Shown: piece by piece, positions 8,631 to 52,255 of the stretch | Layout of the letters: every line of letters begins with the position of its first letter | Numbering within the stretch: position 1 is the first letter of the stretch | NCBI GenBank assembly: GCA_973895155.1 | Contig: OZ316893.1 | Coordinates: 17,773,481 to 17,825,735, forward strand | Length of the DNA stretch: 52,255 nt | From: Marsupella aquatica | Lineage: Eukaryota > Plantae > Marchantiophyta | Direction of reading: 5' to 3' | Translations under genes and position numbers: made by a program | The notes under the pieces: model-generated | The model's input: only the letters and a program-made list of their open reading frames with translations | Databases searched by the model: none | What the model was told of the DNA's origin: nothing

Positions 8631-9051
8631 GGCCGCGCGCCCTGCATAGGGCCGCGCGCAGGAGGACGCAAGGGTAAGGCCCGAGAAATGGGCCGGGGCG
8701 CATGGCGAAGGCGCCAGGAGTTTTTTCGGTTCTATTTTTTTTTCCTTCCTTTTTCTTTCCCTCTTCCTTTTGCACGACCCTCTCATTGCCGAAAGCAAAA
8801 ACGGGGTTCTTCTCTCTCTTGCCGGAAGCTCTCTCCAGATTCTAATTATTTTTGAAGCTCTCTCTTTCATGGTGGATTAGTGGGGCTTGCTGGCGTCATT
8901 CTTCCAGGCATTAGTGGCGGCCGCACGGAGTAGTGACGGGAAATTGAGAGAATTTAAGTGATCGGGCTACGGGGGCTGTTTCGGGCCAGGGAATTGACAT
9001 TGCCACGGGTGACGGGATTGGTGATTGAGAAATTGATTTCGGGATGCATGG

Positions 9052-22214: not shown

Positions 22215-23051
22215 TGTCACACCATCGGCCTAGTCCTTAGGCTGATCTACATCTAAGACGGACACTTCCCTTGCTAGTATTCGGGTTTGGGCAGGGAGGG
22301 ATGTGCGGAGTGCGTATAATTCTCCCAAACTAGCGCTAAGTGCGCATACATTTACTTACGAGCACGCTTAGGTATGCTTTGTGTTCCGCCGCCGGAACGT
22401 ACCTCAGTCGACACGGGGTCAACCCCGGCTTATGGACTTCTAAGCCTTTGTGTTACCGCCTTTGATCCGGATCCATTAGTACAAGTGCTCAACCCTGGCT
22501 CGCAACCCCGTACCCGTAACCTGCACCCCGTGCACGCTTGGCATAACGTGTTTGGCCCGACATTGATACTTGCACACGAGACTCATACATGCATTCATAC
22601 ATAACAGAAATCTTGATTTACACGAAGGAATTGAGGAGAAAGGATTTCATTCATATATGATCATACACTTACAATTGGGTGACCCGACACCTTGTGAATG
22701 AATGGGCCCAAGGCCGAGGAGTATACACTACAACGGAGCCCGGCTCCGCACTTGCCCGACGAGCTTAGTTGTATACCCTCCCCTTGGCACTCCGGCACTT
22801 CACCAAGTTCAGGACTTCCCCCCGCGTACCGCGAATGGCCAACTGTTATACTAAGGGCTGAGGACCAGCTTGGCCTCATGCCCAAATCTACGCTAACTTA
22901 TATCCTTGCTAAGCTGAGTACGGCTTGTCCTATAAGTCTAACATATTCTACACAGGCTGGCTAATGTGTCAGCGTCGCTATCTTCTGGCCGGCACTTGTC
23001 CTAATAGGCTGTTTTAGCTACTCCTAGTTCTATTCTAAGCCTAACCCTTGG

Positions 23052-23941
23052 CTAATGCCTGGTGCGCTTGCCAGAGCCATCTGAGTGGGAGCAGCCATCC
23101 CGCTGCCTACAGAGTCTGTCGTTGTCCATCTTGAGGAGTTGGACTTGGTCTAGCAGAGATTTGTTCTCTCGCTTTGCCGCATCCGTCTCCTCAACTGCCT
23201 CTTGGCATGCCTCTTCCAGTTGCTGGGTGTTGCTCGTCAGCTTGTCCATCATGTGGTTCTGCTTCTCGACTTTGGTTTGAAGCCACCCTACTTTGGCCTT
23301 TAGGGCGGCAATCTCCGCAGTGTCACGCTGGTCCTGCTCGTCGGCCTCCTCCGGGTCTTTCTGCCAGATGACAGTTTGATTCTTCAAATTGTCAATCTGG
23401 GTCTGGAGCCGTGCAATCTCGGCCTCCTTCCCAACTTTGGCCTGTTCGGCTAAGGCGGTAAGGGCGTGCGCATTTGCTAACAACTCATCGGCGGCTACAA
23501 CCTTGGGTCGTAGTTGCAGAAGCTTAGCCTCTTGAGTCTCAATTTTGCCCTTTAGGTACACGGACTCCACCCGGTACCGCTCTATCCTCTTAAGGGCCTC
23601 CGACTGGGCCCGACCTGCCTTTACTGCGGTAACCAACTCCTGGTTGAAGAAGTAGGCTACCTTCCGGGCCATGAACTCCCTGGTATCCCGGGCAATCTGT
23701 TGGGAGAAGTCTCCCAACAGCCCGTTCAGAAATGTACCCGGTACAAAGAGTTTTGGGTGGTCCAGGTTGTGCCCGTCCGGAGTTGGGCATGGGCAGACGT
23801 CAACTCGCGCGGGAGCCGGGGTAGTGACATCCAGCCCTGGGGATGTAGTGTTGGAAGGGGCTTGGGTGCCCTCCTCCATCATCGTGTTGTCCTCTGGAAT
23901 AGCCATCGGTGGGTCTTCTGGACCCTCGGGCTCGGGCAAGG
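23052..23941 (-). pseudogene. C-terminal coiled-coil part of the ORF of the 22215-32279 unit
   Basis: 295-aa open piece with long coiled coil. It joins in frame to 28612 after removing the inner insertion (QVGPSAEVGAVE|ALPEPEGPEDPP). Confidence 0.7.
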
Positions 23942-23946
23942 CCTCC

Positions 23947-26900
23947 TGTGGTGCGTCCCATGGCTCCCTAAACCCAAGAAACCCCCCAGCTCAAGCCGAT
24001 TCCCGCAGGTTTCGTGCTTGGCGAGGCCGTTTCCGCGGCTTAGCGGCATGGGACGCTGCTAACCTTCTACTACTACTATTAACATTTTACACACATATAC
24101 TGGACAGATCCTTCATCGGGTCATGAGATACGTAGCCGGCCTAATATAGGCCTTCCCCTGTCTTCCCCTGTCTTCCCCTCCGTCTTGTTAGGTATGTTTG
24201 GATTCCGCCGCCGGAATGATCCCCAATAGGCTTGGTTAAGCCGCTAAGACCTCTCTCAGCTCGACACATCCAACTCTCACTCCCCTGCTTACTTTCCTTC
24301 CTTCTGTTGATGTGGGCACTCTTCACACAAGTTAATGCGACACACAAATAGCAAAATGACTCATTCTGACTGAGTCATACCATGCACTTGCCATACAAAC
24401 AGTACATCTCATACACAAGTTCTGCGAACTAAGCCGTGAGGCCAACTCTATTCAGCTCTTAGGCATGAGGAAACATGAATATACACAAGGGTCACTGTAT
24501 GACTAACCGAGAGCTTCTCGTACTACTTGATCCCAGCCCGGCTGGTGCAAACTAAAAACTTGCTAAAGAAGAGGCCCTGAGCTCCCCGCTGCCCAGGTAC
24601 TTATCCTGGTAGTGGATCCGCCATTCTTTGCATCGTAAGCCTAATCTACCTGACAGTAATCTACTTGCCCGAATCTACCTATGTACAGCAAGGCAGGAGC
24701 ACAAGTGTTGCTCCTACCAGTGGGACCGCAATCCCACTAAGCTAAGTGTCAGGGCCGCTCCTGGTTCTGATCCTAATCCTAAACGTGGAGATCCGCGCCC
24801 GCCCTGCCCACTCACGCCTCCTCCCTCCACGTCCGCCCTCCCTAAAAGGAACGGCGCCCTTGCACCGTCACGACACCGGTGGTGGATCCTCAATGGACGC
24901 CCCCAACACTTCCTCCTCAGCCACTGCCGTTGGCCCGCCTACTGACAGATTACCTGCCCTTGACCGAGTCAACTCTCCATCGGCCTGACTGGGTCCACCT
25001 TCGGCTTCAGCCTCGACACCGGCCTCGGCAATACCCACGGCTTCGGCCTCAGCCACTCCAACGGCTTCGGCTTCAGCCACTCCCTTGGCTTCGGCCTCCC
25101 CTTCCCCTAGGGTAGTTGGATCCTTAGCCGTGACCCTGTCTGGGGTCGGTGCTGGGTCTACCTCCTTGATCACCACGGCCTGTGAAGTCGTATTACTCCT
25201 TGACCCTGAAGGTGTCCGCTTCTTCTTCGTTGGTGGCTCGGCAGCTGGTCCCTTCCCCTTCCCACTTACTTCCGGCACTGGTGCAGGTGGCGCGGCTTGT
25301 CCTTCGGCAATTACCACCCCTGGTAACTGGTTTGTCCCAACGGGAGATGGACCTGCTGCAGCTAAGCATTTAAATACTGCGGCTTGTTTCTTCAGCCGCT
25401 CTGTTTGGTTGTCGGCCCGCCGCTGTAGGTTCTCCATCTTCCTCGTGATTTCCTCCAACTCCTCTTGGGTTTCATCCAGGTCCTTACGTGCCCCCTCCAG
25501 CTCGTTTTTGGCCTCCTCCTGCTCCCTGTGGGCTTCCTCCAATTCCTTCTTCAAGGTAGCCCTCTCCTCCTGGGTTGCTCTTAGCTCCTTGTCGAGCTCT
25601 GCAATGATGACAGACTCCATCTGGTTCATCTTGGCGTAAGTCTGTTCGAGCATCTCGTCCTTCTCCCTTAGGTCGGCCTTGAAGCTGGCCGTCAGGGACG
25701 CAAGCTCCTGCTGCAGCGCCATAATCCCTTGATAGGATTTCCCTAACTCGACCTCCTTCTGCTCAAGGGCTCCGCGGATTCTCTCGAGCTCCCCTTTCAA
25801 CGCCCATTCCTTTCTTTGGGTCTCCGCCATGGCCCGGCTGTTGGCTGTTATGTGGGCCTCCTCTGTATTCTTCAGCTCTTGCTTCCACTTCTCCCTCTCT
25901 TTGATCATGTCGGCCAACTCTTCCTGCGTCTGAGTCAGTTTATCCTTGATATTCTGATTATCAGCCTGCGCGGCGTCCAACTGCCCCTGCATGATGTTCA
26001 GCTCATGTCGTTTAATCCGCAGTTCATCTTGGGCTTTCTTGGCCGCCCTTAGATCTTCAATCTCGGCTTCCATCCTCCTAAGCCGCCGAATGACCTCGTC
26101 CTTCTTGCTTCTCTCTAAAGCCACCGCTTCTTCTAATTGGTGCTTCTCCAACTGCTCCCTATGGAAAAAGGGTCCTACCTCCAACTCCTCTCCAAAGATG
26201 CCGAGCGCAAGTTCCCCACACATCTTACCATACTCCATGGCTCTATTCTTAGCGTAGGTGGAGTAAGTAGAAGTGATCGGCATCGCCCATCGTGGCCTCT
26301 GCTCCCAAGCCGTCCTGCGGATCTCTTCAATCGTGGCTAGAGGTTTGCTTCCTTTTTCGGCTAGCCGCCTGATGTCCTCCGGCCAATCTCCCCCTGGTAA
26401 ATCCTTTTCCTTAGCCAGGGCGGCCTCTTCCTCCTGCTTGATTCGCTCCTGAAATTCCTGTACCGTCTGTTTTATGCTGTCGAAGCTCGGGGGAGCAACA
26501 TCTGGTGGGGGAGACTCAGGGCTACTCTGCTGGTTGGGGTCCCCTCGCACTACCCTTGGAAGTGTGGGGACAAACCGGCCACAGGTCCTTACTCCTGGAA
26601 CGTGATGGTCCGACCCATAGCCGGAATTATCATGGCTGCAGTCCTCCACTGCCTCCTCTACCTCTTGGACGTCCGGCTTCTCCCTCTCCTCTTCGTCGGT
26701 AGGAGCTTCAGGCAATTCTGCCTCAGATTCGGAGCTTGAGGTTCCCACGTACATTCGAACACTTGGCTTGGATTCCGGCCTGATTCTCTCCTTGTCTCCA
26801 GCAAAGGGGTTTTCTCTTGTGAGCCGGTGTTGGCCTACCTCTGTAGTAGTGTCCTGCATTGTTGCCGTTGCCGTTGTTGTTGCCGATGCCGATTTCTTTT

Positions 26901-28606
26901 CTTTCTCCAGTAGTTTCAGCAGACTCTGCATGCCTGGTTGCTGCATCGGCAAGTCTTCCTTCCTGGGCCTAAACACCTGCTTGATCGTAGGACTAACAGG
27001 TGGTTGAGGCTTCTCAGCCAACGGCCTCGGCGTTGGAGCTTCCTCGGGTGCCCTTACCTGCAGGGGAAGTACCGGGGCAAAAGTCTGACTTCTGGCATAC
27101 CGGCACAACAGCGGCATGTGATAGCCAAGCCGCGACACGCTCCCCATGCCGATTACCTGCTGCTCCTCCTTTAAGATCTTCTTCAATTGGTTGAGGAGGT
27201 ACCCGTTGTAGTCCCAGCTTGGGTCTGGCCTTTCTGCCAGATAGACCTGTGCCTTGCCGATCTCTGCCCTCGGCAAGTTACAATGCATGGTCACCCGCAA
27301 GAAGTCGATCATCTCTCCTATGTGCGGGTTGGTGCAGGTGTTTCGGAAGAAGCCATTCTTCGTTGATGGCCCGGGGAACGACCGGAACTCCTTGTCAGGC
27401 AAGGTCTTCCTGGTATCAACTTTGGTCTTATTGCCTATCGGCAGGCCAAACACTTCGGCAATTACCTTGGGAGTAAGATAGAAATCCTTCCCATATATCC
27501 TCGTGCAATTGGTCTCGGGTTCCCATGACCCCACGAATTCTAATAGGTCTGACTCCAGTACCTCCGGCTTCAGCCATGGTAATCTTACAAAGGCCTCCAA
27601 GCCGGATCCGGCCATGAAGCCTTGGTACTTCTTGGTCTGCATGGCCGTAAAGCATGCATCCTCCTCTCGTGCAAAATGTAGTTGCACCTCCACCGGTAGG
27701 GTTGCCGCCCAGCCCTTCCAGGTGTCATCCCTGGTTGGAATGGCCTTGATGGGATCGACCTCCTCCTCTCCGGCTTCTCCCTGCCTCCTGCTCTGCTGCT
27801 CGGCTGGCTTCTTTGGTGCCGCCGACCTCGTTCTTTTTGCCGGGGTGGCTTCATCGTTGACGGCTCCCTTCCTCTTCATCTCTGCTGCCGTGGAGGTTTC
27901 TCCTAGCACCGTTGCCTGGGTCCACCTTTCCGTGCTACCCTTTAATTCCCAGTGTATGTCGTTGCAGTTCTTGATGGCCTCTCGGATGCCGACGACGCTG
28001 TCTTTGCAAAACAGAAGATCGTCGAGTTGATTGGAAGTAGGCGTCCACAGGAACTTGTCCTTGATGAGTTCGCCTCCTAAGAAAGCCGTCTTCTGCAGCT
28101 CCCACAATCGAGCGAGCTCCTGCCGTTCTCGAGCTGCCCTTTCTGACTCCTCGTCCTCGTAAGTCTTGATGTACTCAGTTGCCCGTTCGAACAGGCATCC
28201 CCAGAAATGTGCCGCTTGATTGACGTTGCTCATACCCTCCTTAGGTCGATCGTCGGTATCTACTCTCTCCCCGAGTGCTTGCCTAAGCAGCTGACAGTAG
28301 TTGGCCTCCCGTAGTCGTCTGCCTAGTTCGTGCTCGCAAATGAGCCACCATCTCCTGCAAGCGCTCCTTACCCCTCTCCTCTGCCGGTCCTTCTTCCCGT
28401 TGATCCTTCCTAGCCGCCGACGCTTAACGCGCCCTAACCCTAATCGGGTTTTCACCCTTAGTCTTACCTCCGGCCTCGGCCCGGGTTCCATGGTTGCCCC
28501 TAATTGTTTATATTTTCCTTGTTTTGTCACTATACTAAGGTGTTCCTAGGGTGCCTTCCTACTTTACCCACTTAACCGGCCGAGTGATTCCTGTCTAGGC
28601 ATCACA
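23947..28606 (-). mobile_element. Solo-LTR-like unit (4660 bp) carrying the intact 1220-aa ORF
   Basis: Minus-strand termini TGTGATGC...GCACCACA (7/8 inverted match), perfect TSD CCTCC (23942-23946 and 28607-28611). Its removal restores the host ORF frame. Confidence 0.85.
24868..28530 (-). CDS. Intact ~1200-aa accessory protein: Athila-ORF1/'plant transposon protein'-like domain, disordered linker, long coiled coil
   Basis: Uninterrupted ORF (first ATG ~28492). GLEAFVRLPW...LLEFVGSW...IYGKDFYLTPKVIAEVFGLP resembles retroelement accessory-ORF domains. ~250-aa coiled coil and AEAEAVGV repeats at the C-terminus. No RT, integrase or transposase motifs. Confidence 0.8.
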   Translation of the reverse strand: MTKQGKYKQLGATMEPGPRPEVRLRVKTRLGLGRVKRRRLGRINGKKDRQRRGVRSACRRWWLICEHELGRRLREANYCQLLRQALGERVDTDDRPKEGMSNVNQAAHFWGCLFERATEYIKTYEDEESERAARERQELARLWELQKTAFLGGELIKDKFLWTPTSNQLDDLLFCKDSVVGIREAIKNCNDIHWELKGSTERWTQATVLGETSTAAEMKRKGAVNDEATPAKRTRSAAPKKPAEQQSRRQGEAGEEEVDPIKAIPTRDDTWKGWAATLPVEVQLHFAREEDACFTAMQTKKYQGFMAGSGLEAFVRLPWLKPEVLESDLLEFVGSWEPETNCTRIYGKDFYLTPKVIAEVFGLPIGNKTKVDTRKTLPDKEFRSFPGPSTKNGFFRNTCTNPHIGEMIDFLRVTMHCNLPRAEIGKAQVYLAERPDPSWDYNGYLLNQLKKILKEEQQVIGMGSVSRLGYHMPLLCRYARSQTFAPVLPLQVRAPEEAPTPRPLAEKPQPPVSPTIKQVFRPRKEDLPMQQPGMQSLLKLLEKEKKSASATTTATATMQDTTTEVGQHRLTRENPFAGDKERIRPESKPSVRMYVGTSSSESEAELPEAPTDEEEREKPDVQEVEEAVEDCSHDNSGYGSDHHVPGVRTCGRFVPTLPRVVRGDPNQQSSPESPPPDVAPPSFDSIKQTVQEFQERIKQEEEAALAKEKDLPGGDWPEDIRRLAEKGSKPLATIEEIRRTAWEQRPRWAMPITSTYSTYAKNRAMEYGKMCGELALGIFGEELEVGPFFHREQLEKHQLEEAVALERSKKDEVIRRLRRMEAEIEDLRAAKKAQDELRIKRHELNIMQGQLDAAQADNQNIKDKLTQTQEELADMIKEREKWKQELKNTEEAHITANSRAMAETQRKEWALKGELERIRGALEQKEVELGKSYQGIMALQQELASLTASFKADLREKDEMLEQTYAKMNQMESVIIAELDKELRATQEERATLKKELEEAHREQEEAKNELEGARKDLDETQEELEEITRKMENLQRRADNQTERLKKQAAVFKCLAAAGPSPVGTNQLPGVVIAEGQAAPPAPVPEVSGKGKGPAAEPPTKKKRTPSGSRSNTTSQAVVIKEVDPAPTPDRVTAKDPTTLGEGEAEAKGVAEAEAVGVAEAEAVGIAEAGVEAEAEGGPSQADGELTRSRAGNLSVGGPTAVAEEEVLGASIEDPPPVS

Positions 28607-28611
28607 CCTCC

Positions 28612-31600
28612 ACCGCCCCGACTTCTGCGCTCGGCCCGACCTGGTTGATCGCGTCTAAGGTTGCGATCACTGCCTCGTCCGGTACCTCTTCGGCCACGGT
28701 TACGGCTACTTGTGGAGGTGGAGTGGGTGAGGCATGCGTGGCCGCCAGACTTTGGGCCTTGGGTTGAGGCTGTCAGTGGTGGACCTTGCCACCCAGCGCC
28801 CTCACCAATCCCAGCACTCATGTCTGAGTGCCCTTGGCGCCCGAACGCCTCCACGGAATACCTTGAGCAAGCATCCAAGTGCCTCTAGCACCACCTGCGG
28901 CCCCTCCCATACGAAGCCGCGCTTGCTCACCTACACGACCGCTACTCAACGGTACTCACTGTCTGCACAAGCAACCAAGCACCTCGGTAAGTAACCCCTC
29001 CGGATCTAGAACTCGCCAAGTCTAGCATCCTAACTCAAGCTCAACAGACGTTGGTAAATAGGTCAGCGATAGGTCCTCCCGATGCCATAAGCCGGAACCA
29101 GAACCAACGCCCACTGTTCGTCCCGAACAACTCCTTCCTTGGGCGCGGCCCAGGTTCCCCCTCATACGTATCCATCACCAACTGACCACCCTGACCTCAG
29201 GACATGCTCATGGCCCAATTAGCATATTTTGTCCTAAGGCTTGTCTCAACACGCCGGGACCAGAACGGCCCCGACTCTAACAACCGCTCCCGGTTTGCCC
29301 CACTGATGGTCTAGGGACCGAGCGCCCTTGGAACTCAGCCTCCATACCTACTTCGCCTTGCCTCCCTAACGCAAGCTCCCTTGGGAGGCTGAACGCGGCT
29401 TGGCTGCTGTTCGGCAGGATTGGCAAGCGGGGTGAGCTAACACCCGCAAACCACGAGAACCCATGGCACCCCCGGACCCATCTGAGTTAAGGAGGGCGTA
29501 GCTCAAGATCTTTCCAACGCACCCAAGAAGTCCTACAACAGACTTCTCGTTGGGAGGATATCGCCATTTCCGTTTGGCGGTTTCCCTTAGTGTCGCGATC
29601 ATCGCGGCTCACGACTTCGGCTTGGCTTTAGCCCCCAAGGAGACACCACTACCCTCATATATGCTTCTGGAGACCTGCCACCCCCAGACCAGCTTTGGTC
29701 CCTAAACATTTGGCCCCCAACCCGGATCCCATGGGGCATAATGGGCGCGCCACCAATTGGCAATGCCCATAACTTTCTTGATAGGCATTCACAAGCGAAG
29801 TGCCTTCGCCCGTTGTGACCGGGCCGACCCAGTGCTCATGCCTAGGCCCTCAGGTCTGATTGCCGCTCGGGGCCCCCGACCGGCCCAACCCGGATCGGGC
29901 CACAACTTGCGCCCCAAGCGTCCGTTGCCAATGGCGTCAACTCCATTGGCCTTGGGCCCAAGAGGAGCTCACTCCCAAGCCCTCATAACTCAAAGTCCAT
30001 CCGACGGTCCGGACGGCCATCCTTGAGTCCGGCCCATTTCCCCTTGACCCGACCAGCCATAGGCTAGTCCAAGTCCTTAGTGTGTGTCCCCAGCTTGGCC
30101 CCTTGCCTTGCCAGTGCCACGTCTCATTGCCCACAAGTCTCCCCATGCTAAGTCCTCCCCGGATGGCCTATCCGGGCTTGGACCATAAGGGAGCTCGGCG
30201 TCGGAGTCAGCGACGCCGGAGCTAAGTGTTAAGGTAGTCGAGTTCCGCGACTCCGTCTCTCCAAGGCCAGGAAGACCCACTTAGTTGGGACCAACTTAGT
30301 TACGTTGGCCCAAGGAAGGGTTCCTCGATCAAACCGAGCGTACCACTCGAGAATGAGCTCGATGTGGCTCGCGAAATACGCCTTCCTGCCAATGTACAAC
30401 GCCTTCCTTTGTCGTTCCATCTCTTCATGGAACTTCTTAGCAAAGTACGACGCCCACTTCCTAGGCCGATAGTTCTCGACCTGGATAACCTGGGCAGCGG
30501 AGATCTTGCCTCGGGGTTCCATCATATGTAGGGCGTACCTCTGGAACTCCAGCCGCTCAGCTATCTCAAGGATGAGGCAAGTCCTCATCACGAACTCGTT
30601 GTCCACTGACCCCTCGGAGGGGAAACTCGAGGATTGGTACTTGGCTCCTTTACCCCCGGGAGCTCATGATTCGACTTGTTGATCTCCCTCAGGTAGCCCG
30701 AAGATCATCCTGAGCCGCTCCTCTATGAGGGACATATTCCTCCCCCGTAGCCGAGTATGCTGACAAACGTCGTCATAATTCTTGACAAACTCTGTCATGT
30801 CCTCCCCGTAGTACCTACAGGTGTTCTAGGGGAGAGAGGCGAGGTGATCGAACCCCTAAGTCTTCAAGTACACCGCATGTTTGGGGTGGAGGATGTTCTT
30901 ATGCACGTTCTCCCCCATGCGGTGCATTGTCACCTTGGCCATGGTTAACCCGGATACAGCTGCGGGTTCCTTCCTCTTCTTTCCCCAAGACTAGCTCCCG
31001 TGATGGCTCGGAGAGGGTGACATCTCCCCATCCTCCCGATTGGGTATGGGTAGTGCCACCGCCGTTAGTATTGGGGCCGGGTGGCTATGGTCACCATGTT
31101 GTCCATCGGAGCTGCTACTCGGGTCTGGGCCTGGGGAGGGGGCTATGTAGTGCCGACTCCCTGGGTGCTCGCTCCTCTGGGCCGCCTGAGCAAGGGTAGG
31201 GTAGCCTCATCGTCGTCGCTGAGGTCCACAACATTGACGATGGATCACACCTGTATGGGCGGGGCGATCGGTGGTGGGGATCGGCTAGGTTGAGGCGGAG
31301 CCTGAGCCTGAGCCGGTGTTGGTGCGGGTATGGGCACGGTCTTGGCTGGGCCGGCACCGGTGGTTGATGGTATGGCTGCCATGAAGTTCTGCAAGTGCTG
31401 ATAGAGGTTTTCCGAAGCAAGTGTAGACGGCCTTGTCAACTGGGTAGTGTTGAACTTGCTGTTGATGATGGCCTGGACCCGAGCGGGGATGTGGTCAAAG
31501 TGGTGCCGCTATAAGTTGATTGTGCCCGGGATAGTGAAGACCGCGTCCGGAAGCTGAAGCAATGCCTCCCAGAAGCCGATGTATTTGCCCCCGTCGAAGA

Positions 31601-31825
31601 AGTACCCTGATATTTCTTCGGGTCGGTAAAGCTCGCTCTGGGATGGGTAATCAAAGTGAAGGAGATAGTGGTGGCGGCCTGCTAGGCGGATGGCTCTCTT
31701 GTACTCGCGTTCAATTTTGTATCGGCGCGGTTGGTGTGTTTTAATGAGTCGGCCAAGTGCCCCCCGATAGACAGGAACTGCGTCCAGAATCGTATGGCCA
31801 AACTAGAAAGGATCGTGTGCGACAT
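28612..31825 (-). pseudogene. N-terminal decayed part of the ORF of the 22215-32279 unit
   Basis: Fragments incl. 30229-30606 (KWASYFAKKFHEEM...YFASHIELILEWY, accessory-ORF-like) and Pro-rich linkers; many stops and frameshifts. Confidence 0.55.
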
Positions 31826-31923
31826 TCAAAGGAGATAGAAGGCGACTAAGGATGGGCGAGAGAACTGGGATCAAAGTTGGCGCGTGGACTGAAGAATTGG
31901 TGCATTGCAAAGGATTGGCCCCC

Positions 31924-31931
31924 TTTTTATA
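31924..31931 (-). promoter_or_regulatory. Candidate TATA box upstream of the LTR-internal ORF
   Basis: TATAAAAA(GGG) on the minus strand, ~350 bp inside the unit's 5' end and ~100 bp before an ATG at 31825. Confidence 0.4.
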
Positions 31932-32279
31932 CCCTAAGAGCTCGTCGGTCGCCCAACGCCTCCTTGTTGCTTATAGGCCAAGCCTTTCACGCTTGTAGTG
32001 TACCGGCCACTCCGCCAGTCCGGGTAAGCGCGTGTCAGTGGCCGTCTCCCGGAGTTCATTATACGGACCCGAGGGAGGGGGGCCCATTACATGCTTGCAA
32101 CCGGGCGTGCGAATGGCGACCCGCCACCCCGAACACAAATGCGCCTTATTGACTAATGATTTCCTACTCATAAGGGCTACCAAAATACTGTCGTTACGCT
32201 AATAATTATGGCCTAAGATACCCCTAACGCACGTGCTAAACGTGGTTAGGCCAAATCACTCATTACCGGCGGCGTCACA

Positions 32280-42700: not shown

Positions 42701-42861
42701 ACTACTTGTGAGTGGGAACAACAGAAAATCTTGGGAGGAAAGGATTCTCAATGACCATTGAAATGGCTTGTTGCAGAAGAGTCAATGATAAGAAAGGTAG
42801 CAACAAAGGAGGCTCCAACCAAGAACCAAGTAGCAAATGGAGCTACAGGATTAGAACCAAC

Positions 42862-45800
42862 TGTGACGGGTACCCCGTCACGGGAAGTCACACATAACTG
42901 GTTGCAAAGGCCGATACCTTGTTAATAGTCAATGTAAATAAGCCATTTTTTAATTTTTAGTTAATTCCGTCATTATAGGTTGATGATGCCCCAGGTGACT
43001 TTATATTCTTTCTCTCATAATAGTTCTAAGATTTGCGGCGACCTAAGTGGGCAAATATTTTGGGACCTTGAAACTAGCCAGGACCAGCCCCATAGGACTT
43101 ACCGTTTTGCTTCAAGAGCTATTGTTGAGACCCCCATTGCAAAGTCAGGAGAGGGGGGGGTTTTTTTTTAAATAAATCCCTCCTCAGGAGGGCGAGTCCC
43201 ATTAGTGGCCGTCCGAGAGAAAGAGGGGCTGCCTCGCGAGCCCATAGGGCTGCGTGCCCGGGCGATTAATGGGGCTCCGCGAGCTGAAGGGGCTGCCTCG
43301 CGAGCCCATAGGGCTGCGTGCCCGGGCAATTAATGAGGTCCCGCGAGCTGGGAGGATCACGCGAGCGGGGGGGAGTTAAAGGGCCTCCCGCGAGCTGGGA
43401 GGATCACGCGAGCGGGGGGGAGTTAAAGGGCCTCCCGCGAGCTGGGAGGATCACGCGAGCGGGGGGGAGTTAAAGGGCCTCCCGCGAGCTGGGAGGATCA
43501 CGCGAGCGGGGGGGAGTTGAAGGGCCTCCCGCGAGCCGGGAGGAATGGCCGCGCGCCCTGCATAGGGCCGCGCGCAGGAGGACGCAAGGGTAAGGCCCGA
43601 GAAATGGGCCGGGGCGCATGGCGAAGGCGCCAGGAGTTTTTTCGGTTCTATTTTTTTTTCCTTCCTTTTTCTTTCCCTCTTCCTTTTGCACGACCCTCTC
43701 ATTGCCGAAAGCAAAAACGGGGTTCTTCTCTCTCTTGCCGGAAGCTCTCTCCAGATTCTAATTATTTTTGAAGCTCTCTCTTTCATGGTGGATTAGTGGG
43801 GCTTGCTGGCGTCATTCTTCCAGGCATTAGTGGCGGCCGCACGGAGTAGTGACGGGAAATTGAGAGAATTTAAGTGATCGGGCTACGGGGGCTGTTTCGG
43901 GCCAGGGAATTGACATTGCCACGGGTGACGGGATTGGTGATTGAGAAATTGATTTTGGGATGCATGGATGCTAGATCAACCAGAGTTTAGTGCGTCACGC
44001 ATTCGGAGATACAAGGCTGCTTACCGTGACTACGTGGAGACTCGGATTACACGGGAAAGGGAAGAGAGAGAAGTTATGATGAGCACGGGATTGGCAGCGG
44101 GTTCCTCACCGGTGGGTAGGAAGATTTTTCGTCGAATTTATCCCAAGACCTCCACCAAGGTGATGGAGGATTGTCGGAACATTTTCCAAGCCACCGGGCT
44201 TACAGAATTCATGAAGGTGGAGATTACCATCCCTTCAGGGAAGAGCTGGGACATTGAGGCCGGGATGGAGTTCCGAACGGAGGGAATCTACTTTGAATGT
44301 CTCAAACGTGTAGTGCCCCATGTGGAGTTGGCTAAGCTATTGTTTCTTGAGAATCAGAAATTCTCATTCACACCTCGGAATATCAGGGGAGAACTCACGT
44401 TGAAAATGGTGGCCACTTGGGTGACCAATCCTACCTCCACCACCGCCATCCCTCTTTCTGCTGTCAAGGATGTTGAGTATAAGGGCTTCCTGGCCAAGGT
44501 GCATCAACGGGTTCTTGGCAACGTGCAATCCGGAGTGCTGAATGAGGAGCATTTCGTGGTAGCTATGGACATCAAGAACTACCCAGCCCATGTGTACGGA
44601 TGGTGGTGCTACGGATTGAAGAAGCTATTGGCCGCTGAGCCCGGGAGTGTGAAACCAGGTGGGGCTGTACATTTGATGGGGTCATTTGTATTGGCCAGGG
44701 CAGAAGGGTTGATTGGTTCTCCGGGGCATGAAGACACGGGATCATCTCTCACCACGGAGATCCGGAGTATTGCCACTACCGTTTTAGGGAAGCTCACGGA
44801 GGAATCATTGTCTGCTGGTGGGGAGGATAATAGAGAAGAAGAGAACCAGGAGGATGATTGCACATTGGAGTGGCTTGAATCACTCGTGGGAGATCCGAAA
44901 CAGCCTCTGGAATACAACATTCCGGATGTTTACTTGGCAGAGCTACGGGATTTCAGAGAGGGAGTCCACGAGGGACTCAAGCTAGTCCACGCATTGAGGG
45001 AGTCTCTCAAGCACGCCACAGTCAAAGTAGAGACGTTAGAGCAGAGCATCCTGTCACTGAAGGAGGTGATCAAGACCAAGGAGCAGACCATTCATGAGAA
45101 GGTCAGGCACATCAATGCAGCTCACGTAGAGATCACCAACTTGAAGGGAGCTTTGTCCACCAAGGCCAAGGAAGCAGAAGAAGTAGGAGCGTTGAGGCAA
45201 GCATTGGCCAAAGAGAAGCAAAATTCTGGAGAAGTGATGGAGTGGAGGAACCAGGTGGGAGCACTACGGAGTCAGGTGGCAGCCTTTGAGACACGAGCGA
45301 AGAGAAGTGAGGCCCTGAGTCTAGGGAAACGGAAGAGTCCCGGCACACCTGGCTCCACACTTTCCCCGGATGTGATCTCCCAAGCTATCGAGATGGTGGT
45401 GAAGGAGGTTAGTGGGAAGTATGGACCCTTGTTGGATGGAGCCAAGAAGAGTCAGGAGAAGAGTAAGAGCTTGGAGAAGAAGCTCCGGGAGGTACGGAAA
45501 TCGTTACGGGAGGCTCAGGTCAGTACGGGGATGCCACCCAGGTCTGTCACCCCCGGGACTCCCATGGCCACGGGGCAAGTTCTACCGTTGGAGTTGCGGT
45601 CCGGAGAAGAGGCTACCCTCTGGAAGGACACAATTGGTGAGGGGTACATCAAGGCGTGGCAGGCCTTGGCTGCTTTGAGGAAGCGCGGGAGCAGCAGCAC
45701 TAAGAGTACTCCGTCGAAGAAGAAGAAAAGTACGGTGGCACTCACTCCCGTGAGTGATGAGGAGGAGGACCACTCACGGGGCACAAGTCCGGGCACCGAG

Positions 45801-46935
45801 AGCGAAGAAGAAGAGGAGGATTAGATAGGCGTACGGACGTGGGTGTACGGCCTCCAGATTTCCAACATTTTAGTGGGGGGTCACTCATGGGCTTGTTGGG
45901 ATGAGCTCGCGGAGCTGATTCCAACAAGAGGCGGCGCTCCTCAAACGGAGCCAGGATGAGCAAGTTATGGCCTGGAGAACTTATGTTTTTGCGGTACGGA
46001 AACGGCCATAACTCAGGCGTCTGAAGTCCGTTGAGGGAGCGACTTAGTGATTCGGAAGCAGGAAAAGAAGAGCTATCCAGGGGTGAGCTCAGGTGTGCAC
46101 TTGGAAGGGCACCTAGTTTCGGCCATTTTGGGGTGCCTCTCACTTTCAGGGTTCACGTGTACTGTTGGGGCGCCGTCGAAGGCACCGTCGGCCCCCTTGT
46201 TTTGGGTTTAGGGTTTTAGCAGCATGTGTGTGCCGCATGCTCCTCTTCAGTTTAAGGATTTCTCTTAGTGCAAGGTTTTAGCGGCGCCGCTAGGGTAGCC
46301 GCCACCGTTGTGACCCTGTGAGGGGTGCTTTGGTGTGATTTTTCAGTATTTAGGGGGATAGCCCCGAAGTAGTTAGGGGGACTCAGTGTGAAGTTAGCAA
46401 GGAGGGATAGAGTGGAGCCTGAGGAGTTTGAAAGCGTGTTCAGAGTAGTGAGGGGGAGCCATACTCATTGTCCGGAGAGGCAGGAGTTGAGTAGACGGCA
46501 GGAGGCCGGGTTACTCATGCAATGTGTATCGTTTTTCCCAAGAGATATGGATCTGTACATTTGACTTGATGGGCTTTTGTTGTGTGTTCCTTCTCCCTTT
46601 TTCGCTTTCCGAATTGTGTTCTCCCGTTCTATGATTTGAAGAAACTTGCTTGGTTTGAGTCGGCCTTGTGAGTAGGGGTGGTGACAGCACTCTTTGGGTG
46701 ACTCCGAGTGAAGGTGTAGTGGGGTAGTCGGCAGGACTTGATCAAAAGCTGTGGGGTGAGGGTAGTCGGTAGACTTGATCAAAACCTACATTTCCGGGAG
46801 CGGAAACCAAAATACTCATCCTGGTGTGAAAAGAATCCAAATAGCGTCCCTCCACGACCCCGTAATACGATACCAACGGTTTAAGCGAAGAAAAGTGCGG
46901 TTTGCACGTATTAACCGTTGGAGAGGCAAGTGACA
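42862..46935 (+). repeat. 5' LTR, 4074 bp
   Basis: TGTGAC...GTGACA termini. Identity with the solo LTR stops exactly at both termini. Differences noticed: 9040C/43956T and 10781A/45697G. Confidence 0.95.
43968..45824 (+). CDS. Intact 618-aa LTR-encoded protein (second copy)
   Basis: Identical to 9052-10908 apart from one N>S change (GSSNTK vs GSSSTK). Confidence 0.8.
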   Translation: MLDQPEFSASRIRRYKAAYRDYVETRITREREEREVMMSTGLAAGSSPVGRKIFRRIYPKTSTKVMEDCRNIFQATGLTEFMKVEITIPSGKSWDIEAGMEFRTEGIYFECLKRVVPHVELAKLLFLENQKFSFTPRNIRGELTLKMVATWVTNPTSTTAIPLSAVKDVEYKGFLAKVHQRVLGNVQSGVLNEEHFVVAMDIKNYPAHVYGWWCYGLKKLLAAEPGSVKPGGAVHLMGSFVLARAEGLIGSPGHEDTGSSLTTEIRSIATTVLGKLTEESLSAGGEDNREEENQEDDCTLEWLESLVGDPKQPLEYNIPDVYLAELRDFREGVHEGLKLVHALRESLKHATVKVETLEQSILSLKEVIKTKEQTIHEKVRHINAAHVEITNLKGALSTKAKEAEEVGALRQALAKEKQNSGEVMEWRNQVGALRSQVAAFETRAKRSEALSLGKRKSPGTPGSTLSPDVISQAIEMVVKEVSGKYGPLLDGAKKSQEKSKSLEKKLREVRKSLREAQVSTGMPPRSVTPGTPMATGQVLPLELRSGEEATLWKDTIGEGYIKAWQALAALRKRGSSSTKSTPSKKKKSTVALTPVSDEEEDHSRGTSPGTESEEEEED

Positions 46936-46955
46936 TAAGTGTGGTCTTTTGTTTT

Positions 46956-46973
46956 TGGCGCCGCTGCCGGGGA
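46956..46973 (+). promoter_or_regulatory. Primer binding site, tRNA-Asp type
   Basis: TGGCGCCGCTGCCGGGGA, one mismatch from the Athila-type TGGCGCCGTTGCCGGGGA; 20 nt downstream of the LTR end. Confidence 0.85.
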
Positions 46974-47190: not shown

Positions 47191-50100
47191 ATGCCGAGAG
47201 GGAGAAGGGGAGGTAGAGGAAGTCCCCAACACACACGTACCCCAAGATCAGAGCTAGAAGGGGGGCCCTCTTGGATTGGGACCAGACGACGAGTTGCTGC
47301 CGAAGAACGCTTACGGCTTGCAGAAGAGAGGAGGTTGCCACTGGTGCTGGAAGAACAAGTTGGTGTGCAACAGGAAGAGGCTCAACGTAATGAGGCCATA
47401 TGCCCAGACGAAGAGCCAGACATAGATCACGAGCGAGAAGAAGGAGAGCCCTTTGTGTTGGTGCAGTCTGAGTTACAAAATCTGATCCCAGAGCTCACTG
47501 CATTGCCACAAATCATCTCACACCTATCATCGGTGCTGTTACCGGTGGCCCAACAAGCGCCATTACCACCTGTGTTGATACAGGCACCGGCTGCACCGAT
47601 GGCAGCTGCACAACGTACCCGTGTTCAGTACGTACCCTTCAAGGGGAGACCAAAGGATGATCCAGACGAATGGATTGAGGAGTTTGAAGGGATTGCCGAA
47701 GCTAATGGGGAGTCTGCACATAAGCTCACTATCATTCCTGGAATGATGAGAGGGGAGGCAGGTCCATGGTTCATTTCGTTGTTGGCCAACGTGAAAGCTG
47801 ATTGGGCTCTGTTCAAGCAAGCCTTCTTGAAGGAGTTCAGATCCATAGGAGTGGAGGCCACCTCACTATTAAAGGTGGGCCAACTCAGGATGAAGAAGAA
47901 GGAGTCATTACGGAGGTTTTTGCAAAGGTTCCAAAAGCTGGTACGTCGGATCCAAGCCCGTACCGATGATGCTATGCGTCAAGCCTGGTTTGTGGCTGCC
48001 CTACCAAGCAAGATGGGGTTCTTTGTACGTCAAGCCAAGCCAACCACATTGGCTGAAGCTATTGCAGCAGCGGAGTCATACACCGCAGCTGATGCCACAA
48101 GCAAGCGTTGCCGAAGAAAGAAGCTGAAGCCGGTTGACAGTTCCTCCAGTGAGGAGTCGAGTGGATCTGATTCAGATAGTAGTGATGAATCTGAGGATTC
48201 TGAGAGTACTACAGAGTCAGACACTACGGAGTCAGAAGCTGAAAGACGAAGGAGGAAGAAGAAGAAGTTGTCAAAGAAAGTCAAGAAGTCCTCTCACCGT
48301 GAAGTGATACTACCCACGGTGGCCGTTACACCATTGTCTACGGCAAGACGCCTGAAGGAGCAAGAGGCCAGATATGATGAGCTGACGGAGCAAATGAAAG
48401 CGTTGAAAGTACATTTTGCCGGACTCAAACCTGAGAGGAGAAAAGTTCCGGTGGAGAGAGCCAATGTGTGGTGCACCAAGTGCATGAAGTTTGGTCATGC
48501 CCCGAAGGAGTGCCCAGCGGGAGAACCAGCCAAGGTTTTCCAAGTACGGGAGGAGGATGTTGAGGGGGCAAGCTACTCAAATCCTTCATATGCAGCGGAA
48601 GGGCCAATAGAGTACTTCATGGAGGAGCCACCAGAGGCCAACGTGTATAGTGTACAACCTCTCAACCCGGGACCACGGAGCATTCATGGAGTTTCAACAA
48701 ACGCCGGAGCACCCGCATACTCCAACTATCCCAACGCTAACCCAGGGAATCGACCACCGTACCCTGGAGTGAGGAAGATCCCTATTTGTTACAATTGTAG
48801 AGTGGCGGGCCACTACGCTAATGTGTGCCCAGAGCCCACCCGTCAAGGCAATGGAGATTTTGCCCGGCTGTGTCAACTATGCAAGGGGGAGGGTCATCTT
48901 GCACCACACTGCCCAACCTTGGAGGCGTTCAAGGCTCAACCGATTGGGGCACAAGAGAAGAAGGGGCCGCCACCTCCTCTGAAAGAAGCTAGCGTCAACT
49001 TTCTCACCACGGAAGCAGTCGACACCCCTCTAATCACTAGAAGAGAAGAAACCGTAGTGAACATTCCCAAGCAAAGGATGACCACCATAACGGAGGAGGT
49101 GGTACCGCTAGTCGTTGTAGTATCTCCAGTTGTTGAGATACCGGTGGTTGTTGTTGCAACATCTACGGAAGTTGAAGTTGCTAACCCCTCACCCCCAAGT
49201 CATGAGTGGACTCATGCTGAGAATCTACCGGAGGAAGACAGCGACGAGGAGAGAAGGCATTACTCTTGTTACCGAGTCTCCACTCGATCCGGCAAAAAGA
49301 AGGGCAAGTCCGAGCTCAAGCAGAAGTACAAGGAGGTGCATCAAGCTTCCACATCGGGTACCTCACACGAACCGGAGGTGCCACCCATGGAGGATAGTGA
49401 CTTTGATCGGGACAACCCCAAGTTGTTCTATCCGAAGGTGGGAGAAGAGGTACGTAAGCAGTTGGAGGAGCTAGAAGCACAAGCCATGCAAGCGGCCATT
49501 GACAAAGACATGGAGGAGGCAAAGGCCAGAAAGAAAGCGGAGGAGAGGGTTGTTCGTTGGAAACCGGGAGAAGAGGTCATCCCACCCATACCTCCTGCAA
49601 CCGCGTACAACATTGCTCAAGACATTCTGGATTGCCCAGTCAGTGCCACAATTGGTCAACTATTACGGGATAGCTCCCTATACCGTCGCCAAGTCAAGGA
49701 GATTCTCATGAGGAGGAGACGTAGAAGAAGGTTACCCAAAGTTGGGGCTGACCCCATACAAGTCAACTGGGTCACGGAGGATTTGGGTGCCCCAGAACTC
49801 ACGGTGGACATCAATGGATGTGCAATACGGTTTGTACCGGTGGACGGGGGCTCGGGAGTCAACATCATGACTGAGGAGACGGCAAACCGGTTGGGGTATA
49901 CAGAGTTAGAACCACCGGCACGTGCCATGAGGTTGGCTGATGGTGCACGGGTGGTGCCGTTGGGGTGTCTCACCAAGATTCCAACAATGATTGGGGGAAA
50001 ATCTTTCCCCCTCAACTATTTGGTGATGCGACCCGTTCGGCCGTACGGTTTTCCCATTTTAATTGGCAGGCCATGGTTGTATGTGGCCAAGGTCACAAGT

Positions 50101-52254
50101 GATTGGGGCAAACGGCAGTTTCGGTTTGGTATCCCCACTATCACTATTCCATGGTCAGCGGAGTCACCTCACGGGGAGACTACGACTATGGAGGAGGAAT
50201 ATGATTCAGAGGTCACCTCAGATGAAGACGAGGATGAAGTATACATGGTGAAACTGATTTCTCACCTCACGGAGGAAGATGTTTTTGGCCCCGGAGTTGC
50301 TACTCAAGAGCATGCAGTAGAGGAATCAGTTAGCCAAGTGCACGCTGTTCTAGAAGAGATGGAAGACGAGCGAAGCAAAATTGTGGAGGCTGAACCTCTA
50401 GAGATTCATGATAGGGAGGCAGAGGATCACCCCGAGGAGGTGGAAATGCAAGCCCACACGATCATGTTTGATGATGAGCAAAGAGAGCAGTTTTTGAATG
50501 ACATCCTGGATGATGACTTTAGAGAGGAGCTATTGTCACATTACAAAGAATCTGACGTTGAAGAAATAATGGCCCATGTGACAAAGGATCCACCTCCATC
50601 CCGACCAGACCAGGAGGAGAGTGATGCACCGGTGTATGGAGGGATGAGGCTCGCACGGTTGGAAGAAACCTTTGATGAGGAGACACGCAACAAGTTGGAC
50701 GTGATCAGGCCGGAGCAGTACACAAAGGTGGAAGTGGGTGAGGGCAAGACACTCAACATTGGTAGTAAGTTGGATGCTACGGAGCAACGCACGATTCAGG
50801 AATTGTTGAAAGAGTACCAAGACGTATTTGCGTGGAGCCACCAAGATTTGAAAGGAGTGCCACCTGAGTTTGGTGAGCACAGCATTGACCTGATGTCAGG
50901 AGCACGACCTGTGAGGCAACGCCAATACCGCCTCAACCCCAAATACTCACTCATGGTGAAGGAGGAGATTGACCGTTTGTTGGATGCAGGATTCATTTAT
51001 CCGGTCATGCATAGTGAGTGGGTGTCACCCATCGTAATCGTGCCCAAGAAAAAGGGGCCAGACGGGAAGGTGAAAATACGGGTGTGCCAAGATTTTCGAA
51101 AGTTGAATGATGCGACCAAGAAGGATCACTACCCGCTACCGTTCACGGATATCGTGTTGGACATGGTAGCAGGTTGGGAGATATACAGCTTCTTGGATGG
51201 CTACTCTGGGTACAACCAAATCTGGATACGGGAGGAGGACCAACTCAAGACGGCTTTCACAACAGAGTGGGGGATTTTTGCATTCCGGAGAATGCCTTTT
51301 GGGTTGTGCAATGCCCCTGGCATGTTCCAACGGCTCATGATGAATATATTTCATGACTTTTTACGCAGGTTCTTGGAGATCTTTATTGATGACTTTGCTG
51401 TCTACGGCAAACGAGTCAAGCATCCGGAACACTTACGGTTGACTTTTCAGCGGTGCCGGGAGACTTGCCTGAAGCTGCATCCGGAGAAATGTTTCTTTGG
51501 AATTGAGGAGGGAATCCTATTGGGCCACAAAGTGTCTGCACGAGGGATTGAAGTTGATCGTGAGAAGGTCGCCGTGTGGGTAGCAGTCTCATTTCCCAAG
51601 AATGTGAAGGAAGTGAGAGGGTTCTTGGGGTGTGTTGGCTACTACCGACGCTTCATCAAAGACTTTGCCAAGGTAGCCATGCCACTCACTTCCATGTTGA
51701 AAAAAGGAAGTGAGTTTGAACCTACTCCTTCCCGTCAGGCTGCTTTTGATGAATTGAAGAAACGATTGCTAGAGGCCCCCGTGCTCATTACGCCCAATTG
51801 GAATAAGGAATTCCATGTTTACGTAGACGTATCAGGATTTTGCATCGGTGCCGTTTTGAGTCAGTTAGATGATGATGGAAGAGACCATCCCATCTACTTT
51901 GCCAGTAGGCAGTTGGCCCCGGCAGAGAAAAACTACTCACCCACCGATAGGGAGGCACTTGGTATCATCTACGCTTGTAAGAAGTATCGTCATTATTTGT
52001 TGGGGTACAAGGTTGTGTTCCACACGGATCACAACAGCTTGAAATACATGGTCAACAAGCCAGATCTGTCCGGGAGAATTGCACGTTGGGTTTTGTTGCT
52101 ACAAGAGTTCAACTATGAGGTGAGAGTAAGATCGGGGAAGAGTCATAGCAATGCAGACTTCTTCTCCCGTATTGAGGGAGCATCTGACTCCCAGGAGATT
52201 GATGATCGGTTCCCGGATGAGGAAGTGTTCAGCGTGAATACAGAGGCCACTACT
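47191..52254 (+). CDS. gag-pol: Gag-Pol polyprotein (partial, open to the window end; absent from the ORF track)
   Basis: ATG at 47191; gag FKGRPKDDPDEWIEEFE; three CCHC knuckles (48472, 48787, 48871); protease VDGGSGVNIM (49843); RT FLDGYSGYNQI, MPFGLCNAP, FIDD (51382-51393); RNase H VYVDVSG...DREALG...HTDH...NADFFSR. Confidence 0.95.
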   Translation, partial: MPRGRRGGRGSPQHTRTPRSELEGGPSWIGTRRRVAAEERLRLAEERRLPLVLEEQVGVQQEEAQRNEAICPDEEPDIDHEREEGEPFVLVQSELQNLIPELTALPQIISHLSSVLLPVAQQAPLPPVLIQAPAAPMAAAQRTRVQYVPFKGRPKDDPDEWIEEFEGIAEANGESAHKLTIIPGMMRGEAGPWFISLLANVKADWALFKQAFLKEFRSIGVEATSLLKVGQLRMKKKESLRRFLQRFQKLVRRIQARTDDAMRQAWFVAALPSKMGFFVRQAKPTTLAEAIAAAESYTAADATSKRCRRKKLKPVDSSSSEESSGSDSDSSDESEDSESTTESDTTESEAERRRRKKKKLSKKVKKSSHREVILPTVAVTPLSTARRLKEQEARYDELTEQMKALKVHFAGLKPERRKVPVERANVWCTKCMKFGHAPKECPAGEPAKVFQVREEDVEGASYSNPSYAAEGPIEYFMEEPPEANVYSVQPLNPGPRSIHGVSTNAGAPAYSNYPNANPGNRPPYPGVRKIPICYNCRVAGHYANVCPEPTRQGNGDFARLCQLCKGEGHLAPHCPTLEAFKAQPIGAQEKKGPPPPLKEASVNFLTTEAVDTPLITRREETVVNIPKQRMTTITEEVVPLVVVVSPVVEIPVVVVATSTEVEVANPSPPSHEWTHAENLPEEDSDEERRHYSCYRVSTRSGKKKGKSELKQKYKEVHQASTSGTSHEPEVPPMEDSDFDRDNPKLFYPKVGEEVRKQLEELEAQAMQAAIDKDMEEAKARKKAEERVVRWKPGEEVIPPIPPATAYNIAQDILDCPVSATIGQLLRDSSLYRRQVKEILMRRRRRRRLPKVGADPIQVNWVTEDLGAPELTVDINGCAIRFVPVDGGSGVNIMTEETANRLGYTELEPPARAMRLADGARVVPLGCLTKIPTMIGGKSFPLNYLVMRPVRPYGFPILIGRPWLYVAKVTSDWGKRQFRFGIPTITIPWSAESPHGETTTMEEEYDSEVTSDEDEDEVYMVKLISHLTEEDVFGPGVATQEHAVEESVSQVHAVLEEMEDERSKIVEAEPLEIHDREAEDHPEEVEMQAHTIMFDDEQREQFLNDILDDDFREELLSHYKESDVEEIMAHVTKDPPPSRPDQEESDAPVYGGMRLARLEETFDEETRNKLDVIRPEQYTKVEVGEGKTLNIGSKLDATEQRTIQELLKEYQDVFAWSHQDLKGVPPEFGEHSIDLMSGARPVRQRQYRLNPKYSLMVKEEIDRLLDAGFIYPVMHSEWVSPIVIVPKKKGPDGKVKIRVCQDFRKLNDATKKDHYPLPFTDIVLDMVAGWEIYSFLDGYSGYNQIWIREEDQLKTAFTTEWGIFAFRRMPFGLCNAPGMFQRLMMNIFHDFLRRFLEIFIDDFAVYGKRVKHPEHLRLTFQRCRETCLKLHPEKCFFGIEEGILLGHKVSARGIEVDREKVAVWVAVSFPKNVKEVRGFLGCVGYYRRFIKDFAKVAMPLTSMLKKGSEFEPTPSRQAAFDELKKRLLEAPVLITPNWNKEFHVYVDVSGFCIGAVLSQLDDDGRDHPIYFASRQLAPAEKNYSPTDREALGIIYACKKYRHYLLGYKVVFHTDHNSLKYMVNKPDLSGRIARWVLLLQEFNYEVRVRSGKSHSNADFFSRIEGASDSQEIDDRFPDEEVFSVNTEATT

Positions 52255-52255
52255 T

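Follow-up and report, generated by a model that had tools for sequence, protein, structure and literature searches.

Extra open reading frames in LTR retrotransposons

Plant long terminal repeat (LTR) retrotransposons can carry extra open reading frames (ORFs), which the REXdb passages devoted to them sort solely as 5' or 3' and forward or reverse (PMC6317226), and which other accounts, in their relevant passages, describe as internal or as separate from the LTR (PMC7264820; Retrosat2, PMC3485330; Retand, PMC11963269). Their function is described in two of these passages as an open question (PMC7264820, PMC11963269). A sequence-only reading of a stretch of liverwort DNA had taken such ORFs to be normally internal, in agreement with REXdb and the review passages, and had proposed that the stretch contains a plant Gypsy element with an accessory gene in its LTR. 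This stretch, hereafter the window, comprises 52,255 nucleotides of Marsupella aquatica (GenBank assembly GCA_973895155.1, contig OZ316893.1, positions 17,773,481 to 17,825,735, forward strand), and the present analysis concerns the element, the 618-amino-acid (aa) protein apparently encoded within its 4,074-bp LTR, and two further LTR-like families in the same window.

Several described systems share part of this layout. Athila elements, as far as the available parts of the sources describe them (PMC6317226; 10.64898/2026.03.20.713144), have in common with the Marsupella element a 5-bp target duplication, a primer-binding site (PBS) of the tRNA-Asp/Asn type, a single gag-pol ORF, the lack of an extra RNase H (aRH), and an extra ORF with a coiled coil. 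However, the extra ORF of Athila is internal, whereas here it is inside the LTR; the LTR of Brassicaceae Athila is given in the portion covered as 1–2 kb, compared with 4.07 kb here; and, unlike in Athila, the reverse transcriptase (RT) is 44–48% identical to angiosperm relatives and falls in a separate bryophyte-type clade. The rice elements Retrosat2, FRetro3, and RIRE3 share LTRs longer than 3 kb, many solo LTRs, and a fast-evolving extra ORF0 upstream of gag-pol (PMC3485330, in part), but they are chromovirus-type and placed in Tekay (PMC11728184, in part); moreover, the accessible text treats ORF0 of this group as separate from the LTR and, thus, their solo LTRs would not retain it. The liverwort lines 'Tat Z2' and basal 'Z1', compared by description only, are likewise non-chromovirus and devoid of aRH, and the available portion of their account does not mention LTR-resident ORFs (PMC13468544). 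Similarly, the accessible part of the description of the liverwort Apopellia genome reports Athila, Phygy, and Tat and mentions no gene-bearing giant LTRs (PMC12885004).

Outside plants, mouse mammary tumor virus (MMTV) has a whole ORF, sag/naf, in the unique 3' region (U3) of its LTR with its own U3 promoter (PMC9412291, in part), which is the layout that we infer for the Marsupella element. MMTV differs in being a vertebrate retrovirus whose sag is a membrane superantigen, and no sequence relation to the 618-aa ORF is expected. A literature search, in which subscription papers were thinly covered and an earlier mention is therefore possible, brought up no plant LTR that encloses a whole gene; among the papers listed, judged in part by title and opening of the abstract, MMTV was the sole fitting case. 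Since the part of REXdb covered gives non-chromovirus LTRs of up to ~5 kb (PMC6317226), a 4-kb LTR by itself is not unusual. Plants are known to have long LTRs and, separately, extra ORFs; a complete gene within a plant LTR is apparently new.

A 4,074-bp LTR and its solo copy

Self-comparison of the window returned a single long repeat, 7936–12019 against 42852–46935, with five mismatches, three of which fall within the 10 flanking bases outside the LTR proper. The repeat proper (coordinates of all features are given in Table 1) comprises 4,074 bp with two mismatches (99.95% identity), and both copies have the ends TGTGAC...GTGACA. The copy at 7946 is bordered on both sides by CGATC and is followed by no primer site after 12019, which makes it a solo LTR. 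The copy at 42862 has unlike flanks, CCAAC before and TAAGT after, without a target duplication, which suits a 5' LTR; given these flanks and the primer site and gag-pol ORF that lie downstream, it is the 5' LTR of an element. As the copies are 0.05% apart, the insertion of the element appears young. The LTR limits had been held to be fixed twice, by the solo copy and by the downstream PBS; the solo copy does set the end exactly, whereas the PBS, 20 nt away, sets it only roughly.

At least six public runs, from three organisms and four studies, contain 73–94% of the sampled words of 42862–48500 (the six matching runs listed, of 14; one may be the source sample) and, since they contain most of these words, the region is not an assembly artefact. 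Two other delimitations were rejected. A single giant element spanning 7946–46935 would have unlike flanks (CGATC and TAAGT) and no PBS after 12019, and a small element with short LTRs is contradicted by the 4,074-bp unit itself, as neither a PBS-like motif nor a terminal or internal LTR pair was found within it.

The gene within the LTR

As had been claimed, the 1,857-bp sense ORF lies wholly within the LTR and the solo LTR keeps one intact copy of it, the two proteins differing by a single amino acid. The longest stop-free frame spans 623 codons, compared with a maximum of 394 when the LTR was simulated 2 x 1,000 times by a Markov model, while the remaining five frames over the ORF contain 15–34 stops each. 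Moreover, the codon score under a gag-pol model is +0.23 bits per codon in frame versus +0.09 or less in the five other frames. A HMMER search of 1.84 billion proteins identified 13 relatives with E ≤ 0.001, which are 27–62% identical to the 618-aa protein and jointly tile its residues 1–617; four of the nine looked up bear a name, in all cases 'unnamed protein product [Calypogeia fissa]'; the Calypogeia entries are CAM6083533.1, CAM6129071.1, CAM6090912.1, and CAM6126659.1. By sequence criteria, the 618-aa ORF is a gene, and selection on it may be argued from its diverged relatives, since these, at 27–62% identity, retain the frame along the full length of the protein. No relative of the ORF turned up among the 7,994 candidates of a word-based protein search, and locus scans of metagenomes (with the 618-aa ORF and gag) and of viral contigs and prokaryote genomes (with the RT) gave nothing usable. 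The GC- and CpG-rich tandem repeats that lie upstream of the ORF would be promoter-like.

A captured host gene or a neutral passenger, intact because the family is young, would be in line with the two differences over 4,074 sites and with the annotation of four relatives as Calypogeia genes. Nevertheless, this origin is improbable, as the frame conserved in relatives implies long selection, the codon use of the ORF matches that of the gag-pol of the element, the ORF is intronless and has no host family in Pfam, and the layout recurs in other families of the window, one of them apparently under purifying selection.

Primer site, gag-pol, and lineage

Downstream of the 5' LTR, the putative primer site begins with TGGCGCCG, which starts at 46956 and is unique in the window on both strands; no tRNA gene with which to check the primer occurs in the window. 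The spacer that separates it from the LTR, if real, would require unusually long integrase trimming of the complementary DNA (cDNA) end. The single gag-pol ORF has the Ty3 RT as its best relative of solved structure and follows the Ty3/gypsy domain order, with gag, protease (PR), RT, and RNase H (RH) in the window and integrase (INT) after RH in the relative P0019, which is 81% identical and has one ORF from gag to integrase. No aRH was found between PR and RT in the window, nor in full-length P0019 and P0024, and neither of these relatives contains a chromodomain. The gag of this ORF has three zinc-knuckle-like motifs, and an acidic linker of ~340 aa, without a Pfam domain, lies between protease and RT.

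Among the best 120 matches to RT-RH, the closest are unlabelled metagenome proteins (81–82%), followed by Riccia sorocarpa (58–65%), Marchantia (57%), and angiosperm proteins (~41–50%). In a FastTree phylogeny of the query and 54 hand-picked matches of the 120, without REXdb references and with an arbitrary root, the query RT groups with Riccia (support 0.995) within a wider clade that includes Marchantia (0.973) and is separate from the angiosperm relatives, the deeper link having a support of 0.72.

According to REXdb (supplement 5, PMC6317226), the combination of a 5-bp duplication, an Asp primer, a single ORF, and the lack of aRH is in keeping with Athila and at odds with Phygy, Selgy, and the aRH-bearing Tat. 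The family has a 5-bp target-site duplication around its solo LTR, and the element has a PBS of the tRNA-Asp/Asn type, one gag-pol ORF, and no aRH. By contrast, the LTR-PBS spacer of 3–6 bp, reported together with a tRNA-Asp/Asn site for Brassicaceae Athila in the part covered of the ATHILAfinder study (10.64898/2026.03.20.713144), differs from the 20 nt found here. The 4-bp duplication and tRNA-Trp or tRNA-Ala PBS of Phygy and Selgy are absent; the aRH of aRH-bearing Tat is missing, with the pol of the window itself stopping after RH; and the PBS differs in type from the tRNA-Met site or self-priming of chromoviruses, which carry a chromodomain after integrase. Lines of Tat without aRH exist in liverworts (PMC13468544, in part). 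Because of these lines and of the misfit of the 20-nt spacer, the element appears to be a non-chromovirus Ty3/gypsy element that is Athila-like rather than Athila.

A plant Gypsy element with an accessory gene in its LTR, as initially proposed, is supported by the solo LTR with its target duplication, the primer site, the gag-PR-RT-RH array, and the coding-type ORF with conserved relatives, and gains further backing from the two additional LTR-like units of the window that bear ORFs. The gene very probably lies inside both LTRs of the element. If the 4,074-bp unit were instead an independent mobile unit that carries a gene and happened to insert immediately before a Gypsy primer site, the 20-nt gap to the PBS and the position of the 3' LTR outside the window would be accounted for. 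This is very improbable, however, since the copy at 42862 has no target duplication whereas the solo copy has one, the leftover 20 nt lack a terminal CA and are preceded by no other LTR candidate, the 4,074-bp unit contains no transposase, internal repeat pair, or PBS, and copies of the second family likewise precede PBS-like letters.

The 618-aa protein

The protein appears to consist of an N-terminal globular part (~aa 45–245), a predicted coiled-coil middle (~aa 310–490), and a basic and then acidic tail, with basic patches at 454, 571, and 584. Pfam returned weak matches to coiled-coil families alone, over residues 310–490. An envelope-like gene would agree with the term env-like, applied to Athila 3' sense ORFs in the accessible part of PMC7264820; nevertheless, judged from its sequence, the protein is not an envelope protein, because it has no membrane helix (highest 19-residue hydropathy 1.09), and its basic patches would better suit a nuclear protein, which makes the envelope alternative hardly credible.

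In the ESM Atlas, residues 40–270 have among their top three clusters one with PF03078 in 17% of its members and one with PF20167 in 56%, at a score of 0.83 that one third of shuffled proteins match. The N-terminal domain of the 1,207-aa ORF of the second LTR-like family points to the same PF20167/PF03078 clusters (0.87–0.91), reaching 0.89 with one composed 100% of PF20167 and 0.91 with an unnamed cluster equal in size to one in the list of the 618-aa protein. In sunflower Athila, PF20167 corresponds to the extra ORF in 3' sense position, for which a nuclear location is predicted (PMC11728184, in part), and both the Arabidopsis Athila domain and the anti-silencing protein VANC are predicted coiled-coil pentamers (PMC13547354, in part), with the plan of a globular domain, a coiled coil, and a basic patch seen in the 618-aa protein. 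Kinship of this protein with the Athila ORF (PF03078/PF20167) may be given an even chance, the family tie being a weak lead and no proof. The predicted fold of the 618-aa ORF, with a predicted local distance difference test score (pLDDT) of 35.5 from one sequence and 49.3 from eight, is too poor to judge, and in fold searches this low-pLDDT model had no match with E ≤ 0.001, the highest Z being 5.7 for an alignment of 60 residues with a root-mean-square deviation of 3.0.

Second and third LTR-like families

When the window was scanned for TGTGAC...GTGACA ends bordered by 5-bp duplications, of which ~0.2 pairs are estimated to occur by chance, the solo LTR was recovered together with a unit of 10,065 bp at 32279–22215. 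As one LTR, the latter was rejected, since it consists of two nested units, a 5,400-bp unit of a third family interrupted by a 4,660-bp solo-LTR-like unit of a second family, in which no internal repeat pair was found. Contigs of four public runs were mapped onto 21700–32800 and, among the joints listed (15 of 317), one that skips the whole 10,065-bp unit occurs in two of the four runs and one that skips the 4,660-bp unit (23941–28607) in three, five letters fitting either side in each case; these empty-site contigs may derive from other copies of the host sequence. In two of the four runs, the 3' end of the 4,660-bp unit runs on into a T run and TGG(C/T)GCTA, which we take to resemble an LTR-primer-site junction. 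The 5,400-bp unit contains broken ORFs, one of which is related to the 1,207-aa ORF (E 6e-10), and its LTR status is suggested by its ends, its duplication, and a shared motif.

A decayed relative of the second family starts at 2744 with TGTGATGCC, as does the 4,660-bp unit, and its broken ORF (1–2544) allows a comparison with the 1,207-aa ORF over 385 codons. Identity is 0.71, 0.75, and 0.39 at codon positions 1, 2, and 3, synonymous sites are saturated, and the nonsynonymous divergence (dN) is 0.32. Since third positions have diverged far more than the first two, purifying selection seems to act on this LTR-resident ORF. By the share of the LTR covered, the 1,207-aa ORF is a stronger case of a gene in an LTR than the 618-aa ORF. 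A word-based search found no relative of its domain among 812 shorter candidates.

The 4,074-bp LTR has no clear DNA likeness to the other two families beyond a palindrome, TTCCG-N4-CGGAA, which occurs once in each of four LTR copies of the three families (11876, 22384, 24203, and 46792), carries a CAAA..ATAC tail, and lies 140–270 bp from their 3' ends. Its four occurrences in the window compare with 0.055 expected, for a motif picked after being seen. As an RNA fold, it is no better than shuffles (z −0.17 to −0.43). The palindrome is a candidate site of protein binding and could help to locate further such LTRs.

Position of the gene in the LTR and proposed origin

On balance, the locus can be read as a young non-chromovirus Ty3/gypsy element whose 4,074-bp LTR carries an intact 618-codon accessory gene, probably the former 3' extra ORF of its lineage taken into U3, and this is likely a liverwort-type lineage that keeps a helper gene in its LTRs. 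Within the LTR, the gene is probably located in U3. Plus-strand priming that shifted upstream of a 3' accessory gene would bring the gene into U3. U3 sequence is copied into both LTRs by reverse transcription, and solo LTRs arise by recombination; a U3 gene would, in this manner, be copied into both LTRs and left in each solo LTR by LTR-LTR recombination. Transcription could start from the GC-rich repeats before the gene, comparable to the U3 promoter of sag in MMTV (PMC9412291, in part), and end at the poly(A) site of the LTR itself, so that a solo LTR could produce the protein without genomic RNA. In the second family, the ORF would be read from the 3' LTR copy; as 116 nt are too close to the LTR start for a promoter of its own, this ORF fits a gene that entered U3 from the internal region. 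As the weakest step, the protein would be a nuclear coiled-coil oligomer, distantly related to the Athila ORF, with a trans-acting effect on chromatin or silencing to the benefit of its family. A counter-silencing role is the single most likely function, tentative as it is.

Alternatively, the gene could lie in the repeat (R) or unique 5' (U5) region, downstream of the main transcription start, as the first ORF of the genomic RNA in the manner of the 5' extra ORFs of Ogre and Retrosat2, with gag-pol expressed via splicing or a second start. The GC/CpG-rich repeats and a pyrimidine-rich tract directly before the 618-aa ORF would suit this arrangement, as would the lack of a clear TATA motif between the stop codon of the ORF and the LTR end and, in the third unit, a TATA-like box ~350 nt from the 5' end, right before its first ORF. 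Nevertheless, it would require an R or U5 of ~3 kb and a suppressed 5' poly(A) site, and the ORF of the second family, starting 116 nt into the LTR, leaves little room for U3; placement in R/U5 is, therefore, rather unlikely.

Several observations weigh against an accessory gene residing in U3 of an Athila-like element. The 3' LTR and the polypurine tract lie beyond the window end, and the spacer at 46936–46955 is longer than that of Athila. The divergence of 0.05% is too low for the intact 618-aa frame alone to prove selection, the codon-position test covers the second family only, and the Calypogeia relatives are known as proteins. Regarding the protein, its N-terminal domain matches no Pfam family even at E 10, its Atlas score falls within reach of shuffled proteins, and a profile comparison of the 618-aa and 1,207-aa domains gave no match (probability 0.2%). 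Moreover, the TATA-like box at ~31932, near the 5' end of the third unit, fits a main promoter upstream of the ORFs, as in the R/U5 placement.

An LTR-resident gene has consequences for the way in which solo LTRs are regarded. Their formation is usually viewed as host deletion of the coding part, whereas here a whole gene remains. A broader conjecture, unlikely as a whole, is that a bryophyte radiation of Athila-like elements moved accessory genes into giant LTRs, with the many solo LTRs as working, self-contained genes whose proteins counter silencing or regulate the family in trans; in that case, solo-LTR formation would spread the regulator of the element rather than disarm it. Because a solo LTR carries its gene without gag-pol, the gene can be expressed by itself in Marchantia and its effect assayed there. 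In annotation, LTR-resident ORFs will be labelled as host genes, as with the 'unnamed protein products' of Calypogeia, and surveys that seek extra ORFs between LTRs only, or that limit LTR length, will miss them.

Table 1. Features of the window (positions counted from its first nucleotide)
Feature	Position	Strand	Remarks
5' LTR, 4,074 bp	42862..46935	+	near-identical to solo copy; PBS and gag-pol downstream
Solo LTR, 4,074-bp family	7946..12019	+	CGATC target duplication at 7941–7945 and 12020–12024
LTR-resident ORF, 618 aa plus stop, 1,857 bp	43968–45824	+	intact; LTR positions 1107–2963
Second intact ORF copy, in solo LTR	9052..10908	+	one N/S difference at codon 577
GC-/CpG-rich tandem repeats (64-bp x2, 47-bp x4.4)	43224..43544	+	upstream of ORF; CpG observed/expected ~0.95
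Palindrome TTCCG-N4-CGGAA	46792..46805	+	143 bp before LTR 3' end
Putative primer-binding site	46956..46973	+	12/13 letters as in the Athila tRNA-Asp/Asn site; 20 nt past LTR end
Single gag-pol ORF	47191..52255	+	capsid, zinc knuckles, protease, RT, RNase H; truncated by window end before integrase
Second family, 4,660-bp solo-LTR-like unit	23947..28606	-	TGTGAT...CACCACA, GGAGG duplication; nested in 5,400-bp unit
1,207-aa ORF	24868..28491	-	occupies 78% of 4,660-bp unit; first ATG 116 nt from unit 5' end
Decayed relative of second family	1..2744	-	broken ORF ~200 nt inside (1–2544), in-frame stops; 3' end outside window
Third family, 5,400-bp LTR-like unit (10,065 bp with nested one)	22215..32279	-	TGTGAC...GTGACA, GACTG duplication

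Other features of the window

The 10,065-bp unit interrupts a transposase-like frame (32280–33328 and 21699–22214, minus strand) without a Pfam match, which is presumably MULE-like, and more transposase-like fragments lie at 20664–21305, 15830–16282, and 36020–36733. Within the 5,400-bp unit, a broken ORF extends over ~31825–30240 and a second ORF (23055–23990 and a part upstream of 28607) is split in frame by the nested unit. Contig depth remains high over 28749–30232 and, thus, a further nested piece is possible there. Just upstream of the 5' LTR, 42544–42736 (plus strand) weakly matches the N-terminal part of the 1,207-aa ORF of the second family (E 5e-4), which makes a decayed LTR of that family a possible insertion site of the element. 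Finally, ~10 copies of a 40-bp unit form an array at 40448–40905, the edge of which matches 19035–19182.

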